Source: Corallococcus exercitus
Lineage (GTDB): Bacteria; Myxococcota; Myxococcia; Myxococcales; Myxococcaceae
Assembly (NCBI RefSeq): GCF_013116615.1
Contig: NZ_JABFJW010000124.1
Reading direction: 5' to 3' (one strand)
DNA: 23,256 nt
Of the stretch, positions 13,412 to 19,526 are shown piece after piece. The notes beneath the pieces were generated by a model. It worked only from the letters and a program-made list of their open reading frames with translations. It was not told the DNA's origin and ran no database searches. Position 1 is the first letter of the stretch. Each line of letters begins with the position of its first letter. Both the position numbers and the translations under genes were made by a program.

Positions 13412-14506
13412 ATGCGCCGCATGTCCTCGACCTTCCTCGATACGCTCGACACGCCCGCCGCCATCGTGGACCTGGACCGCGTCGAGCGGAACCTCCAGCG
13501 CGTTGCGACCTACGCCCGCGAGCACGGCCTGCGCTGGCGGCCCCATACGAAGACGCACAAGACGGCGGAGCTGGGCGCGATGCAGGTCGCGGCGGGAGCC
13601 TCCGGCGTCACGGTGGCCACGGTGCTGGAAGCCGAGGTCATGGCATCCGTGTCCGACGACGTGCTGCTCGCGTACCCGCCGGTGGGTACGCGCAAGCTGG
13701 CGCGGTTGATGGCCCTTCCCTCGCGCGTGCGGCTCACCGTGGCGCTCGATTCGCATGAGGCGCTGGAGGGCCTGGCGCGTGCGGCCCGGGACGCGGGGCG
13801 CACCGTGGGCGTGCTCGTGGAGGTGGACCTGGGCATGCGCCGCGTGGGGCTGCGCACGCCGGAGGAGACGGTGGCGCTGGCGCGCGCGGCGGCGTCCACG
13901 TCCGGCGTGGAATTTCGCGGGGTGACGTTCTACGCAGGCCACATCCGCGTCCCCCAGGCGGAGCTGTCCGCCGCGATGCAGGCCCAGGCAGAAGCGCTGG
14001 CGACGTTCGTGGGCGCATTGAGCCGCGCGGGCCTGCCGCCGGAGGTGGTCAGCGGCGGCTCCACGCCGACCCTCTGGCAATCCCACACCGTGAAGGGCCT
14101 CACGGAGATCCGCCCCGGGCTCAACGTGTTCAACGACCGCAACGCGGCGATCATCGGTGCCTGTGATTGGACGGAGTGCGCCTATTCGGTGCTGGCCACG
14201 GTGGTGAGCACGGCCGTGCCCGGCCAGGTGGTCATCGACGCGGGGGCCAAGGCGCTGGTGAAGGAGGAAGGGCTTGCGCCGGGCTATGGAGTCCTGCTGG
14301 ACCGGCCGGAGGTCGTGGTGAAGAACCTGTCGGAGGAGCACGGCCTGCTGGACGTGTCCGGCACGACGTGGCGCCCGCGCATCGGCGAGCGCGTGCGGGT
14401 GGTGCCCAACCATGTCTGTGTTTCCGTCCCGCAGCATCCCCGGCTGTATGTCGTGCGGGGCGACACACACTTGGCGACGTGGGAGGTCGCCGCGCGCGGC
14501 TGGTGA
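13412..14506 (+). CDS. DSD1-family PLP-dependent enzyme (alanine-racemase-like N-terminal domain; D-serine deaminase / D-threonine aldolase-like)
   Basis: ATG at 13412 with GAGGAG at 13395-13400. The N-terminus …AAIVDLDRVERNLQRVATYAREHGLRWRPHTKTHKTAELG… fits the alanine-racemase-N/DSD1 pattern (PLP-Lys in the HTKTHK context). Length ~364 aa is typical. The C-terminal half (…GERVRVVPNHVCVSV…) is consistent with the D-Ser-dehydratase-like C-terminal domain. Confidence 0.8.
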   Translation: MRRMSSTFLDTLDTPAAIVDLDRVERNLQRVATYAREHGLRWRPHTKTHKTAELGAMQVAAGASGVTVATVLEAEVMASVSDDVLLAYPPVGTRKLARLMALPSRVRLTVALDSHEALEGLARAARDAGRTVGVLVEVDLGMRRVGLRTPEETVALARAAASTSGVEFRGVTFYAGHIRVPQAELSAAMQAQAEALATFVGALSRAGLPPEVVSGGSTPTLWQSHTVKGLTEIRPGLNVFNDRNAAIIGACDWTECAYSVLATVVSTAVPGQVVIDAGAKALVKEEGLAPGYGVLLDRPEVVVKNLSEEHGLLDVSGTTWRPRIGERVRVVPNHVCVSVPQHPRLYVVRGDTHLATWEVAARGW

Positions 14507-14515
14507 GCCCAGGCT

Positions 14516-15511
14516 TCAGACGATGCGCTGCAACTCCTGCGTCAGCATCTCCTCCAGGTGCCGGATGTTCCGGTAGACGAGGCACCGGTAGCTGGAGACA
14601 TCGAAGCGCAATTCCTTCACGTCGCGAACAAGCATCAGGGTGGGCTTGCCACGTCCCCATGCATAGCCCACCTCCAGATAGACATTGGGGTTCGCCAATG
14701 ACAGGTCCGCGATGACGACCTTCGCGGTGTCAATACGGTCCCGGATGCGCTGGATGATGGGGCCATCGAAGACGGCCTGGTCCACCCGCTCGCACAGGAG
14801 CCCGGCCGCCTTCACGGGGTTCAGGATGCCGTAGTGGTAGGTGTCCTCCAGCTCCGGCGCGAAGGGCATTGCCACGAAGGCGTGGGGCTTCTCGTTGGAG
14901 TTCGCGCCCGCGCTCGCCATGGGCGGCGCCTGGACGAAGCGGGACGTCCGCCGCACGCGGAAGCCCGTGGCCCCCATCAGCGGCTCCACGCCCGGCGTGA
15001 GTCCCAGCCCCAGCGCGATGGCCTTGCGCAGCCGCTCCACGCGCTTGGGGTTCAGCTCCACCACCGTGATGCGCTTGAGGTCGCGCGGCCCGCTGCCGCG
15101 CTGGAACGCGTCCACGAAGCCGCCCACCAGGGCCAGCACGGCCTCGTCCTCGTCCAACCCGTAGTTGGGGCCGTGCACCGTGCACGCGAGGTGACGCACC
15201 TCGTGCCGGGGCTCCAGGAGCTGGAGCGCTCGCACGGAGAACTGGCGGATCTCGTGGTAGCCAAACTGCCGCAGGCGCACCGTGCCCAGGAAGAGCACCA
15301 GCGGAGCCCCCAGGCTCCTGCGCGTGTCGATGAAGCGGTGGTCCCCAGGGAGCAGGTCGAAGGCGTCCATGGCCACGCCCGCCGCCTCCAGCCGGCGCGA
15401 CACCGCGCCGTCCGCCCCGTGGAAGCCCTGCGCGTACTTCAGCAGCACGGCGTCCGCGGGCGTCTCCCCCACGTCTCCCAGGTCCACCACGACGTCCAGC
15501 GTGTCTCCCAT
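14516..15511 (-). CDS. Two-domain protein: N-terminal Macro (ADP-ribose binding/processing) domain fused to a C-terminal nucleoside 2-deoxyribosyltransferase-like (NDT/TIR-like Rossmannoid) domain
   Basis: ATG at 15511. The N-terminus LDVVVDLGDVGETPADAVLLKYAQGFHGADGAVSRRL…LLPGDHRFIDTRRSLGAPLVLFLGTVRL…EVRHLACTVHGPNYGLDEDEAVLALVGGFVDAF follows the Macro pattern (GDIT…DAIVNAAN…GGGV…AI; …pGe..iT.g..L…VIHtVgP; …IAFPaIStGiyGyP…eAa). The C-terminus HAFVAMPFAPELEDTYHYGIL…IDTAKVVIADLSLANPNVYLEVGYAWGRGKPTLMLV carries the NDT-superfamily signature (…aD.vva.ld…N..v.fElGyA.a.gKPv…). There is no signal peptide or TM segment. Confidence 0.75.
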   Translation of the reverse strand: MGDTLDVVVDLGDVGETPADAVLLKYAQGFHGADGAVSRRLEAAGVAMDAFDLLPGDHRFIDTRRSLGAPLVLFLGTVRLRQFGYHEIRQFSVRALQLLEPRHEVRHLACTVHGPNYGLDEDEAVLALVGGFVDAFQRGSGPRDLKRITVVELNPKRVERLRKAIALGLGLTPGVEPLMGATGFRVRRTSRFVQAPPMASAGANSNEKPHAFVAMPFAPELEDTYHYGILNPVKAAGLLCERVDQAVFDGPIIQRIRDRIDTAKVVIADLSLANPNVYLEVGYAWGRGKPTLMLVRDVKELRFDVSSYRCLVYRNIRHLEEMLTQELQRIV

Positions 15512-15672
15512 GGGCCGGGGACTGTAGGGCGTCCCGGTCCGCCCACGCCATCCCCTGCATCCGTCGCCGTGCGTCAGGAAGGGCGAAACACAGACGTGAC
15601 AGCAGCGGCCAATCCCTGTTCAATGACGCCCTTGCGCCTGCCTGGCTGTCTTTCAGGCCACCCTCATGCCGC

Positions 15673-15690
15673 CTGTGAAGCGCTTCACAG
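15673..15690. promoter_or_regulatory. Perfect CRP/FNR-family binding-site palindrome (TGTGA-N6-TCACA) upstream of the tandem cNMP-binding protein gene
   Basis: cTGTGAagcgctTCACAg is a perfect 18-bp palindrome at 15673-15690, ending ~27-36 nt before the candidate starts (TTG 15717 / ATG 15726). It lies in the 205-bp divergent intergenic region shared with the Macro-NDT gene. Confidence 0.5.
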
Positions 15691-15725
15691 TTTCCGGCGG
15701 GGCGGCCCGGTAGCATTTGGGCACC

Positions 15726-16619
15726 ATGTCCCTGTTCGCGCGCCTGCAGGCCCTGCTGTCCGCCCACCCGTCCGCCCCGGCCACCTCCGCCGGACAGACG
15801 CCCGCGACCTCCGCCGCGCCCACGGCGGCAGGCGCTCCGACGGATGCGGAAGCTGCCCCCGCGCCTCCGCCCGTCTGCACGCGCTACCTGCCCGCGGGCC
15901 AGATCGTCGTGCGCGAGGGCGACCCGGGCCATTCGATGTTCGTCGTGCTGGAGGGCCGCGTCGCGGTGCTGCGCGGCGGCGACAACGGCGCCAACACGGA
16001 GGTCGGCCGCCTGGGCGCCGGCGAGTTCTTCGGCGAGCTGGCGCTGCTCACCGGCACGCAGCGCACCGCCACCATCGTGACGGTGGAGGACGCAGTGCTG
16101 CTGGAGCTCACCCAGGCCGGCGTCCGGGAGCTGGGCAAGGACTACGGCGTCAAGGGCGAGCAGATGCAGGTCACCGCCCGGGAGCGCCTGCTCGCGGACG
16201 CGCTGCGCAGCAACCCGCTCATCGCCGCCCTGCCCCCGGAGGTGCAGCACGAGCTGGGTGACGCCTTCGTCCCCTGCACCGTCCCCGCCGGAGAGACGCT
16301 GCTCACCCGGGGCCAGCCGGGCGACGCGCTCTACGTCCTCATCCGGGGCCAGTGCGAGGTCTTCCACACGCACGGCGACGGCCGCCAGTCCCCCTACCCC
16401 ACGCTGGAGGAAGGCGCCCTGTTCGGGGAGATCTCCCTCTTGCGCAGCCGGCTGGCCACCGCCACCGTGCGCACCGTGACGCCCTGCACGCTCCTCAAGC
16501 TGGAGCGAGACGTGTTCAAGAAGGCCTTCCTGGGCCAGCCCGACCTGCGCGGCGCCCTGGTGCGGCTGGGCCTGGAGCGGCTCAAGCACACGATGGAGGT
16601 CATGGGCGGGCCAACGTAG
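15726..16619 (+). CDS. Tandem cyclic-nucleotide-binding (CNB/CAP-effector) domain protein with an Ala/Pro-rich N-terminal region
   Basis: ATG at 15726; the ORF track starts at TTG 15717. There are two complete CNB domains with phosphate-binding-cassette motifs: GEFFGELALLTGTQRTATIVTVED and GALFGEISLLRSRLATATVRTVTP, each preceded by the usual beta-roll context (…IVVREGDPGHSMFVVLEGRVAV…; …LLTRGQPGDALYVLIRGQCEV…). There is no HTH, kinase, TM or other output domain. Confidence 0.85.
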   Translation: MSLFARLQALLSAHPSAPATSAGQTPATSAAPTAAGAPTDAEAAPAPPPVCTRYLPAGQIVVREGDPGHSMFVVLEGRVAVLRGGDNGANTEVGRLGAGEFFGELALLTGTQRTATIVTVEDAVLLELTQAGVRELGKDYGVKGEQMQVTARERLLADALRSNPLIAALPPEVQHELGDAFVPCTVPAGETLLTRGQPGDALYVLIRGQCEVFHTHGDGRQSPYPTLEEGALFGEISLLRSRLATATVRTVTPCTLLKLERDVFKKAFLGQPDLRGALVRLGLERLKHTMEVMGGPT

Positions 16620-16640
16620 TCCTCGGAGCCTCCCGCGGCC

Positions 16641-17234
16641 TCAGCCGTGGAGCGTCTCCCCGGCCTCCAGCATCGCGACGAACTTCTCCAGCCGCCGCGC
16701 CCGCGTCTCGGGCTTCTTCGCCTCGTGGAGCCGGTAGAGGATGGCGTAGCGGTTGGCGCTCTTGAGCGTGGCGAAGAACGCCTTTGCCTTCGGGTTCTTC
16801 TCCAGCGCGAGCGTCAGGTCCGCCGGCACCTCGATGGTCTTCGCCCCCGCGTACGCGGCCTCCCAGCGGCCATCCGCGCGCGCCGCCTCCACCTCGCGCA
16901 GGCCCGCGGCCTTCATGCGCCCGGCGGCGACCAGGGCCTCCACCTTGCCGCAGTTGATCTTGGACCACTTGCTGCGCGGGCCGCGCGGCGTGAAGCGCTG
17001 GAGCCAGTACTCCGCGTCGAGCGCGTCCTTCTGCCCGTCGATCCAGCCGTAGCAGAGCGCCACCTCCAGCGCCTGGGCATACGTCACGGACGGGATGCCG
17101 GACTCCAGCTTCGCGAGCTTCACCCAGACGCCCGGCGCGTCGGCGTGATGCTTCTCCAGCCACTGCTCCCACGCCTTCTCCGACGCGAACGGCACGACCG
17201 GGAGCTCCTGCTTCACCTTCGCCTTCTCCTTCAT
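16641..17234 (-). CDS. YdeI/OmpD-associated (OmdA, 'bacteriocin-protection') family protein
   Basis: ATG at 17234. The ~197-aa protein MKEKAKVKQELPVVPFASEKAWEQWLEKHHADAPGVWVKLAKLESGIPSVTYAQALEVALCYGWIDGQKD… matches the size and N-terminal W/L-rich pattern I recall for the YdeI-like family. The family call is from memory. Confidence 0.65.
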   Translation of the reverse strand: MKEKAKVKQELPVVPFASEKAWEQWLEKHHADAPGVWVKLAKLESGIPSVTYAQALEVALCYGWIDGQKDALDAEYWLQRFTPRGPRSKWSKINCGKVEALVAAGRMKAAGLREVEAARADGRWEAAYAGAKTIEVPADLTLALEKNPKAKAFFATLKSANRYAILYRLHEAKKPETRARRLEKFVAMLEAGETLHG

Positions 17235-18104: not shown

Positions 18105-19112
18105 TCAGGGCGCGGGCGCGGTGGCGGTCTGAAGCGGCGCGCGGATGCGGGCGGAGAAGTCGTCCCGCCCCTGCGCGGCCAGGGCGCGCGCGTTGATGTG
18201 GTAGCGCTGGCGGACCTGCGGCAGCGGCACGTCCGTGTCGATGATGCCCAGCTCGTAGGCGAGCTCGTCCGCGAACGCCGGCATCAGCGTGCGGTGGTCG
18301 TACGGCACGTCCTTCGTGGCCACCTTCTCGAAGTGGCGCACCAGGTTGGTGGTGCAGTTGCTGGTGAGCGTGTCGTAGAACTCCGGCTGCGAGTGCAGCC
18401 CGTTCATCCGCTGCACCATGTCCAGGAAGAACGCGGTGATGCGCTCCCGGGACGCGTTCACCGGATACACATACACGACGTCGTGGCGGAAGTTGGACCG
18501 CAGCTGGATCAGGTCCCGCTCGTCGCCCACGACGTAGGCGATTTCGAAGCGGCGGAACAGCCCGCCCAGCGCGGAGAAGGTCTCCCCCTGCTCCCGCCGC
18601 ACCTCCACGGAGAACACCACGCGGCGGCCGTCCTGGAAGCCGAAGCTCACCATCGTGTGCGCGGCGCCGTAGAACCCGGAGAAGGGCTCCACGATGAACG
18701 ACGCCTCCGTGAGCGCGTCCGTGTCGTAGGTGGCCGTGTACCAGGCGGGGTCCCAGTCCGTGGTGCTGCGGTAGCGGAAGTCACGCACCTCGTGCAGCGT
18801 CACCTTCGAACCCGCCACCTCCGCCCACGGCGCCCGCGCCAGGTCCGGCGCCCAGTCGCGCGTGTTGGAGGGCTGGAACGTCCGCACCCAGCCCTGCACG
18901 CCAAGGCACCCCAGCAGCATCACCGCCACGCCCCAGCGCCGGGAGCGCCACCGCCAGGCCGCCACCGCCGCGGCCACCAGGGCCCCCGCCACGAGGGTCC
19001 GGGCCCCGTGCGGCCCCTCCGGCCCCGTCCCCGTCAGGGCCAGGGCCAACGAGGCCCAGGCGCCCCCCAGGAGGAGCACGAGCCCCGACATGGCGTTCTT
19101 CCAGATGCGCAT
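18105..19112 (-). CDS. Membrane-anchored protein with two N-terminal TM helices and a large periplasmic/extracytoplasmic domain (tentatively DUF4105-like)
   Basis: ATG at 19112 (alternative ATG 19091). The N-terminus [28 protein letters not shown]…[17 protein letters not shown]…[15 protein letters not shown] has two hydrophobic helices, followed by a ~250-aa soluble domain. The DUF4105/Lnb-type resemblance is a weak recollection and not verified. Confidence 0.6.
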
Positions 19113-19298
19113 GCGGCCGAGTATCCGCGCCCCATGCCGCTCGTGTCACGGCCACGGATTCCGGGCGCAACCCCGGCGGGCGGCCGGGCGCGGATCCGCC
19201 CTTCCAGGAAGGTCCGGGCGTTGTCGCCTCCACCTACCTTGACCGCTTTTCCCCGGGTGTGCGACGAAAGGGGGTCCCCTGCTTCCAGGAGCCCCCCG

Positions 19299-19526
19299 AT
19301 GAGCGACGAGCGCGAAGACACGACCATCTACAAGGTCGTCGTCAACCACGAAGAGCAGTACTCCATCTGGCCCGCGGACCGTGAGAACGCGCTGGGCTGG
19401 AAGGACGCCGGCAAGCAGGGCCTGAAGGCCGAGTGCCTGGAGTACATCAAGGAGGTCTGGACGGACATGCGTCCGCTGAGCCTCCGCAAGAAGATGGAAG
19501 AGGACGCGGCCCGCAACAAGAACTGA
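19299..19526 (+). CDS. MbtH-like protein (NRPS adenylation-domain chaperone family)
   Basis: ATG at 19299 with AGGAG at 19286-19290. The 75-aa sequence [65 protein letters not shown]… contains the MbtH signature NxExQxSxWP…GW…CLxYIxxxWTDMRP. Confidence 0.9.

Follow-up and report, generated by a model that had tools for sequence, protein, structure and literature searches.

We analysed a 23,256-nt stretch of the Corallococcus exercitus genome (70% G+C; closest matches, at 98-99% protein identity, in the exercitus/carmarthensis/coralloides group; hereafter the window) that encodes a 331-amino-acid (aa) protein joining a Macro-fold domain to a domain resembling nucleoside 2-deoxyribosyltransferases (NDTs). 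Divergent from this Macro-NDT gene lies the gene for a protein with two cyclic-nucleotide-binding (CNB) domains. The reading we favour, with confidence that is about evenly balanced, is that these are two functionally independent units that stand back to back only in Corallococcus: an N-glycosidase linked to an ADP-ribose-type ligand, and a CRP-controlled protein that binds cyclic nucleoside monophosphates (cNMPs). The initial annotation of this DNA had drawn both genes and a CRP-type operator into one sensing-and-processing module, and it is partly supported: the enzyme nature of the first protein and its affinities with conflict systems hold, and the three-part module does not. The 331-aa minus-strand open reading frame (ORF), the tandem-CNB ORF, the spacer they share and the perfect palindrome in it are all present as described there.

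The Macro-NDT architecture at the level of the predicted fold

The gene and its parts are as follows.

14516..15511, minus strand: Macro-NDT gene, a monocistronic ORF of 331 aa, orthologue of Myxococcus xanthus MXAN_3123.
14942..15511, minus strand: N-terminal Macro-fold domain, residues 1 to ~190.
14894..14941, minus strand: inter-domain linker of low confidence, residues ~191-206 (AlphaFold2 predicted local distance difference test, pLDDT, <50 at 192-206).
14516..14893, minus strand: C-terminal domain of the NDT/DrHyd-TIR superfamily, residues 207-331 and the stop codon.
14672..14674, minus strand: codon of Glu280, which alignment to MilB and to the PF05014 Glu motif places at the nucleophile position of NDT/DNPH1/MilB-type enzymes.

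The PF05014 group of NDTs, DNPH1 (Rcl) and MilB is the DrHyd superfamily of the Burroughs/Aravind nomenclature. An AlphaFold2 model built from 25 orthologues (mean pLDDT 81.4; predicted template modelling score, pTM, 0.59) consists of two domains and a disordered linker at residues 192-206. In the predicted structure the N-terminal domain has the three-layer alpha/beta/alpha macro fold, and the C-terminal domain has the Rossmannoid NDT fold with the nucleophile Glu in an E-x-G-x-A motif. The C-terminal model matched the CMP hydrolase MilB (13.8), several NDTs (13.6-11.8), Rcl/DNPH1 (12.1) and TIR domains (13.0-10.5); MilB, the NDTs and Rcl/DNPH1 are slightly ahead of the TIR domains, and Foldseek is in agreement. 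Because the model matches and Foldseek agree, both domain calls of the initial annotation hold at the level of the modelled fold.

Profile membership is another matter for both halves. Searched alone, the N-terminal domain had no Pfam match even at E<=10 and no macrodomain match in a PDB profile search, and an NCBIfam search of the 331-aa protein returned no match. Sequence comparison does not confirm the Macro call, the support for which is at the level of the predicted fold; an hhalign comparison of the family profile with an approximate E. coli YmdB sequence aligned 28 columns at 5% probability and is evidence neither way. The C-terminal domain keeps the fold and the Glu motif of PF05014 and falls short of its gathering cut-off of 28.8 bits: the match, at residues 252-301, scored 24.5 bits with the whole protein and 27.0 bits with the domain alone. 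The isolated C-terminal domains of relatives were likewise always below this cut-off (17-28.5 bits), and their matches to PF10137 (the CAP12/PycTIR TIR family; 14-16 bits versus a cut-off of 24.7), PF15891 and TIR_2 were weaker still. A PDB sequence search gave one weak match, MilB (E 0.11), to the C-terminal domain. In PADLOC, its best match was PDLC00733, 'Effector, TIR' (E 1.6e-13), a model also matched by 41 of the 42 extended relatives described below. Given the sub-threshold PF05014 score, the weaker matches to the other families and the TIR-effector match in PADLOC, the C-terminal domain is an unclassified member of the NDT (DrHyd)/TIR assemblage.

Conserved residues and a probable ribo-type substrate

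The residues conserved in the family, read from its profile aligned to 148 representatives, bear on what the two domains may do. The signature NxYxExGyA...GKP that had been noticed initially is present as N276-V-Y-L-E280-V-G-Y-A-W-G-R-G-K-P290, and the catalytic-Glu position (E280, in LEVGYA) is Glu in 137 of the 148 representatives (93%). The C-terminal domain further has the motifs HAF212VAMPF217, D223, C240-E241-R242-x-D244, N274-P-N276-V-Y-L-E280-V-G-Y-A-W-G, F303-D304 and Y313, with F212 and E241 each conserved in 95%. The Macro half conserves D13, K25, Q28, G32-x-D34, Y85 and T111-x-H113-G114-x-G/N-Y/F-G118-L-D120-E121-x-E123, most strongly at D120 (100%), K25 (97%), H113 (95%) and E121 (92%), followed by D34 (87%), D13 (84%) and Q28 (75%). 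In a short hhalign alignment the 'GD' position of D13 coincides with the adenine-contacting Asp of Af1521 and YmdB. Candidate analogues of the ADP-ribose pocket (GD13, G32-x-D34 and H113-G-x-G-Y/F-G118), to judge by their position in the sequence, are conserved; K25 and Q28 occupy the positions of the NAAN Asn residues of macrodomains.

The strand-1 position at which NDTs have Tyr is F212 here, with Phe in 140 of the 148 representatives (95%). MilB also has Phe at this position. In NDTs and DNPH1 the Tyr forms a hydrogen bond to the catalytic Glu and is linked to 2'-deoxy specificity; in TIRs with NADase activity its place is usually taken by Phe or Ala (PMC11204291). From sequence, the Phe argues for a substrate of the ribo type, namely NAD+, an NAD-derived molecule or a ribonucleotide.

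This protein is the minimal, stand-alone form of a widespread and uncharacterised two-domain unit. Its divergent Macro-fold domain, which to judge by position has kept the Asp that contacts adenine and the two Gly-rich loops of macrodomains that bind ADP-ribose, may bind or trim an ADP-ribose-containing small molecule. The C-terminal domain, with E280, would cleave the N-glycosidic bond of NAD+, of an NAD-derived signal or of a ribonucleotide, and not that of a 2'-deoxynucleotide. We infer this ligand and substrate, and likewise any direction of control between the two domains.

A widespread family fused to domains of immune signalling

A profile search of 1.84 billion representatives, clustered at 50% identity, gave a family of 562 clusters at a threshold of E<=1e-30. 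The best 150 of these all contain the Macro-NDT unit, nearly all of them spanning both domains, and a scan of one genome per species gave at least 535 relatives, including members in Binatia, Longimicrobium, Chloroflexota, Nostocales, Bacteroidota, Acidobacteriota, Gallionellales and Methanosarcina. Full-length orthologues of high similarity are found across the Myxococcaceae and Archangiaceae, and in other Myxococcota down to 55% identity (MXAN_3123-type orthologues across the phylum are 55-99% identical). Every Myxococcota genus sampled has the gene, vertically inherited and in single copy. In public annotation the proteins are 'hypothetical' or 'nucleoside 2-deoxyribosyltransferase'. A literature search found MXAN_3123 mentioned in no paper, and the Thoeris and Kaur/Aravind-group papers covered, Burroughs et al. 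2015 not among them, yielded no account of a Macro-DrHyd/NDT unit.

Some database records of the family carry unexpected names. Those titled 'Comamonas sp. KCTC 72670' and 'uncultured Enterobacterales' (the latter metagenome-assembled genomes, MAGs; together L030, L054, L055 and L062) contain Myxococcus-like loci of 68-71% G+C, with full Myxococcus synteny in L030; mislabelling or contamination of the assemblies is the probable cause.

Most family members are stand-alone. About 42 of the best 150 are longer than the basic unit, with fused members found among Chloroflexota, archaea and metagenomes. TIR_2 is fused in 21 of these 42; nine members match the ThsB model PDLC00420 (best E 4.5e-60), and other TIR parts match Aga-TIR or SAVED-TIR models. 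The remaining fusions include EAD7 (n=5), EAD1 (n=2), EAD11 (n=1), bacterial Death-like domain 1 (bDLD1; n=1), CHAT (n=2), a Peptidase_C14 caspase (in a Methanosarcina MAG, L076), Trypsin_2, SEFIR with TIR, and an XRE-type helix-turn-helix (HTH). Some members are extended at the C-terminal end instead, by HD or by a further NDT-like domain. The N-terminal TIR and CHAT parts match the PADLOC models SAVED_TIR and SAVED_CHAT. Examples are located as follows.

L076 5146..7026, L078 3064..4560, L081 3568..5157, P0212, P0156, P0408, P0421, P0208 and P0121: fusion relatives (caspase-, TIR-, CHAT-, EAD1-, trypsin- and HTH-Macro-NDT; Macro-NDT-HD; Macro-NDT-NDT).

This set of partners is characteristic of the NAD/ADP-ribose-centred, EAD-coupled conflict systems of multicellular prokaryotes (PMC7159879, PMC8195603, PMC9503650), and is also the domain set of Thoeris (10.64898/2025.12.03.692087). 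The statement of the initial annotation that such fusions are typical of nucleotide-centric conflict and signalling systems is therefore borne out by the fusions to TIR_2, EAD1/7/11, bDLD1, CHAT, caspase, trypsin, SEFIR and HTH. It had also proposed to look for co-occurrence with TIR, cyclase or other defence genes. The annotated ORFs of the window include no cyclase, TIR or CRP-family gene, and the association with TIR appears in distant relatives, as fusions and gene contexts. In the three contexts of fused members that were read, the first has genes for an Mrr-like nuclease, a TIR-AAA ATPase and a transposase, the second a TIR-FHA-kinase gene and the third a DNA methyltransferase gene. A metagenome scan with the EAD1-fused P0156 returned only short contigs, which matched the Macro-NDT part and not EAD1. 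Taken with the partners, these contexts point to a unit that probably derives from the NAD/ADP-ribose immune-signalling toolkit and that in Myxococcota is vertically inherited and stand-alone.

The same data could be accommodated by a plainer role in housekeeping salvage of nucleotides or NAD, in which the protein is a nucleotide N-glycosidase like MilB, DNPH1 or LOG with no part in conflict or signalling, and its Macro fold is a structural or oligomerisation domain, or a phosphatase or deacetylase for ADP-ribose-1''-phosphate or O-acetyl-ADP-ribose. Such a role would suit a vertically inherited gene that is present in every sampled Myxococcota genus, has metabolic-type neighbours in the window and does not lie in a defence island. 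The best solved match of the C-terminal domain is, after all, a CMP hydrolase, MilB, and no relatives of the Macro-NDT unit were found in the viral contigs searched. We nevertheless hold salvage to be unlikely, in view of the repeated fusion to TIR, EAD, Death-like, caspase/CHAT and trypsin domains, the defence-island-like contexts of fused members, and the lack of a conserved metabolic operon partner beyond the Myxococcaceae.

A second alternative keeps the unit within immune signalling and makes it mainly a sensor or a signal-clearing device, not an effector. The Macro domain would bind an ADP-ribose-derived signal made by a TIR, after which the unit would activate the effector fused at its N-terminus (TIR, CHAT, caspase, trypsin or HTH) or destroy the signal through cleavage of its glycosidic bond; the stand-alone form of Myxococcota would hydrolyse or buffer the signal. 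The domains that vary at the N-terminus are indeed typical effector or output domains, HTH included, in a layout like that of effector-SAVED and SIR2-SLOG proteins, and the matches of the TIR and CHAT parts to SAVED_TIR and SAVED_CHAT agree with this. Macro is the signal sensor of type II Thoeris (10.64898/2025.12.03.692087), and a TIR-fold hydrolase specific for cyclic ADP-ribose is reported in PMC13455253. However, several of the fusion partners are ThsB-like TIRs (the best at the E value given above), which in Thoeris make the signal and are not effectors; the EAD and Death-like partners are adaptors; and the majority of the family stands alone. The present data fit cleavage of a signal and cleavage of NAD+ alike, and we regard the sensor role as rather unlikely, though less so than salvage.

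One further proposal is offered tentatively, as a conjecture on which we would not put great weight. The Macro + NDT/TIR-like unit might be an undescribed class of ADP-ribose-signal-responsive component in TIR-based immunity, in which case the fusions with ThsB-like TIRs could be single-chain Thoeris-like systems made of a signal maker, a Macro sensor and a glycosidase that acts as effector or as signal-clearing enzyme. In the fusions with caspase, CHAT, trypsin, EAD or HTH this sensor would be connected to outputs of other kinds, and Myxococcota may have retained the unit alone among their core genes, where it might serve the many TIR proteins of these social bacteria.

The CNB gene and its operator as a probable separate unit

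The features upstream of the Macro-NDT gene, together with its convergent neighbour, are these.

13412..14506: D-Ser-dehydratase-like gene, convergent with the Macro-NDT gene, with 9 bp between the two ORFs.
15674..15689, no strand: CRP/FNR-type palindrome TGTGAAGCGCTTCACA, a perfect TGTGA-N6-TCACA and an element of the CNB-gene promoter.
15711..15716, plus strand: TAGCAT, a possible -10 element by inference, inside a conserved GTAGCAT block.
15726..16619, plus strand: tandem CNB gene, 297 aa from the ATG; the alternative TTG at 15717 would give 300 aa.
16248..16586, plus strand: second CNB domain, with cassette B GEISLLRSRLATAT.

The intergenic spacer measures 205 bp to the TTG or 214 bp to the ATG. 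The TTG start comes from a mechanical ORF list, and orthologue alignments and NCBI models place the start at the ATG, with orthologues annotated at 293-298 aa. As the initial annotation had it, the CNB protein has two cNMP-binding domains (two PF00027 domains, 158 bits) and no output domain; an Ala/Pro-rich N-terminus precedes them. The phosphate-binding cassette of domain A, GELALLTGTQRTAT, is canonical, with its Glu and Arg. Cassette B has Ala at the position of the canonical Arg and is unchanged in closer orthologues, which suggests, on sequence grounds, a conserved but atypical ligand site.

We compared gene order by tblastn of the window's neighbours against 82 Macro-NDT loci, and among these the CNB gene adjoins the Macro-NDT gene only in Corallococcus. 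The spacer is ~205 bp in six Corallococcus loci and ~900 bp in five, which belong to the group of C. llansteffanensis, C. sicarius, C. praedator and PMG_225. In all four of the latter that were aligned (C. llansteffanensis, C. sicarius, CA053C and PMG_225; L011 ~5300..5977, L013, L014 and L009) the longer spacer contains an extra alpha/beta-hydrolase-like ORF (motifs GHGERR...GISMGG), which has the same orientation as the Macro-NDT gene and stops ~25 bp ahead of its ATG. The pair is absent from the sampled loci of Myxococcus, Pyxidicoccus, Citreicoccus, Hyalangium, Vitiosangium, Kofleriaceae and all distant taxa; in M. xanthus the upstream neighbour of the Macro-NDT gene is a Smoa_sbd protein. 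Absence of synteny in related genomes, which the initial annotation had named as evidence against itself, is accordingly what we found outside the genus. Orthologues of the CNB protein (63-67% identical) occur in Pyxidicoccus, in some Myxococcus and in 'Corallococcus sp. H22C18031201', and in the two loci read (Pyxidicoccus sp. MSG2 and 'Corallococcus sp. H22C18031201') they sit in unrelated neighbourhoods with neither the Macro-NDT gene nor an upstream palindrome. Clustering of all ORFs from the 82 loci, with a crude ORF caller that at times chose antisense ORFs, yielded no neighbour family common to distant taxa, its output being antisense shadows of the Macro-NDT gene and genus-level synteny only. 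The sole conserved neighbour within the Myxococcaceae is the convergent D-Ser-dehydratase-like gene.

In Archangium (L016, L019, L036, L037 and L038; ~600..2600) a CNB-like ORF lies ~4.4 kb upstream of the Macro-NDT gene and shares 31-33% identity with the CNB protein of the window. We considered it as an orthologous partner and rejected it, on account of its 32% identity, its distance and the highly paralogous nature of the CNB family in myxobacteria; it is probably a paralogue there by chance.

The palindrome travels with the CNB gene. TGTGAAGCGCTTCACA is the sole perfect TGTGA-N6-TCACA in the 23 kb, where 0.01 would be expected by chance, and sites with up to two mismatches occur elsewhere in the window at chance level, so that there is no sign of a local regulon. 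Ten Corallococcus loci have it in perfect form, and the PMG_225 MAG deviates at a single position. As a dyad in a promoter region, above chance and conserved, it has the attributes of a CRP/FNR-type operator. Its distance to the CNB ATG is fixed at 36-37 nt, even where it lies ~855 bp from the Macro-NDT start, and it is for this reason an element of the CNB promoter. What had been described as an operator in a shared divergent promoter is thus a genuine perfect dyad that belongs to one of the two genes. Downstream of it the GTAGCAT block is invariant in seven Corallococcus sequences; a scan of 14400..16750 for consensus sigma-70 promoters and terminators found no sites. If TAGCAT serves as the -10 element, the dyad centre would lie at about -41.5, the geometry of class II CRP promoters, the transcript would be nearly leaderless and the ATG at 15726 would be favoured; the conserved TAGCAT is the sole basis for this geometry. 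The second unit of the reading we favour is a tandem CNB protein with a perfect CRP-type operator in its own core promoter. The operator makes it probable that transcription of the gene is controlled by a regulator of the CRP/FNR family whose own gene lies elsewhere.

These observations tell against a functional module of Macro-NDT gene, CNB gene and operator. In its strongest form such a module would have the CNB protein sense cNMPs in Corallococcus and serve the Macro-NDT enzyme as regulatory subunit, as in a split Pycsar-like effector, with both genes co-regulated through the shared spacer and operator. In its favour, all 11 Corallococcus-lineage loci in which the upstream side was covered have the two genes side by side in divergent orientation. 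In the defence database the C-terminal domain is matched best by a model for TIR-type effectors from systems that signal through cyclic nucleotides, and the CNB domains show similarity to the corresponding parts of PycTIR-type effectors; the Archangium ORF might be cited as a second association. We think this very improbable. The pair is missing outside the genus, both CNB orthologues with loci read sit elsewhere without enzyme or palindrome, a hydrolase-like gene intervenes in one Corallococcus clade, the window has no cyclase, and PDLC00733 is not among the model matches of the CNB protein. A nearby CNB gene is in any case weak evidence, because myxobacteria encode many CNB paralogues.

Several points weigh against the reading of two independent units, one of them an enzyme of immune-signalling descent. 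The C-terminal domain is under the Pfam cut-off for every family tried, and the pTM of the model leaves the inter-domain arrangement uncertain. The gene behaves as defence genes typically do not, being a core gene in single copy that is inherited vertically and has neighbours of housekeeping type, and this behaviour may point instead to a metabolic or salvage role. Finally, the divergent adjacency is stable in the 11 Corallococcus-lineage loci, and a lineage-specific functional link between the two genes is for that reason possible.

Relation to known systems

The Macro-NDT unit belongs to a known kind of system, of which it is a variant not yet characterised. It resembles type II Thoeris (ThsB TIR with the ThsA Macro-TM effector) in coupling a Macro domain to TIR-type chemistry on NAD-derived molecules, and in some relatives the TIR at the N-terminus gives strong matches to ThsB models. 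Unlike Thoeris, a patchy two-gene operon, it is a conserved stand-alone gene in Myxococcota, its Macro domain is fused to an NDT/TIR-like domain and the 331-aa protein has no transmembrane effector. The ThsB-type TIR gene that defines a Thoeris operon has no counterpart among the window's annotated ORFs, nor is there a conserved flanking partner, and TIR is linked to the family only as a fusion in distant relatives. With the NDT/DNPH1/MilB N-glycosidases the C-terminal domain shares the nucleophile motif E-x-G-x-A...G-K/R-P, and it differs from them in its score below the Pfam cut-off, in lacking the Tyr linked to 2'-deoxy specificity, in its family-specific CERxD and FD motifs and in always standing behind a Macro-fold domain.

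The TIR NADase effectors of CBASS and Pycsar (PDLC00733, PF10137) provide the best defence-database match of the C-terminal domain and weak PF10137 matches in relatives, the latter far below cut-off. In contrast to them, Macro-NDT has no fused cyclic-nucleotide sensor (SAVED, STING or CNB) and no nearby cyclase. A Pycsar system has an adjacent PycC cyclase and an effector with fused CNB; the window has no cyclase, and its CNB domains are on a separate protein, the gene of which is a neighbour only within the genus. The EAD/Death-like conflict systems (PMC7159879, PMC8195603) share with the family the N-terminal EAD1, EAD7, EAD11, bDLD1, caspase/CHAT, trypsin and TIR domains of relatives and a similar taxon bias (Myxococcota, Chloroflexota, Cyanobacteria), whereas the 331-aa protein lacks EAD and adaptor domains as well as an NTPase partner, and we found no Macro+DrHyd unit described in those two papers. 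On the CNB side, the perfect TGTGA-N6-TCACA overlaps the predicted core promoter as in E. coli-type CRP class II promoters. The protein resembles those like the regulatory subunit of PKA in its two PF00027 domains without an output domain, and departs from them in the Arg missing from its second cassette and in having no evident kinase partner or docking domain.

Other genes in the window

Elsewhere in the window, 4810..7095 (minus strand) encodes a 761-aa homologue of the eukaryotic Major Vault Protein (MVP), with Vault repeat families and an MVP shoulder domain (E 3e-45). At 1942..3540 (minus strand) a 532-aa protein combines LysM with a C-terminal domain like that of VgrG3 of the type VI secretion system (E 1.5e-53), and may be a peptidoglycan-targeting effector. 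The C-terminal 70-odd residues (~19305..19526) of the ORF at 18198..19526 (plus strand) resemble an MbtH-like protein, and the syntenic position in M. xanthus is occupied by an MbtH gene (locus L001, 257-472).

Implications

The attractive combination of CRP operator, cNMP sensor and Macro-NDT enzyme is probably a genus-level accident of gene order, and it illustrates that adjacency in a single genome is poor ground for calling a system. There is also an annotation gap, since the Macro half goes unrecognised under the current public names of the family. If the function we propose is true, a widespread and so far unannotated component (562 clusters, in bacteria and archaea) would be added to NAD/ADP-ribose immune signalling, one in which the Macro sensor of type II Thoeris is combined with a TIR/NDT-like glycosidase. 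The fixation of this gene in every sampled genus of the social, predatory Myxococcota raises the question of whether an immune component has there been turned to housekeeping or developmental signalling.

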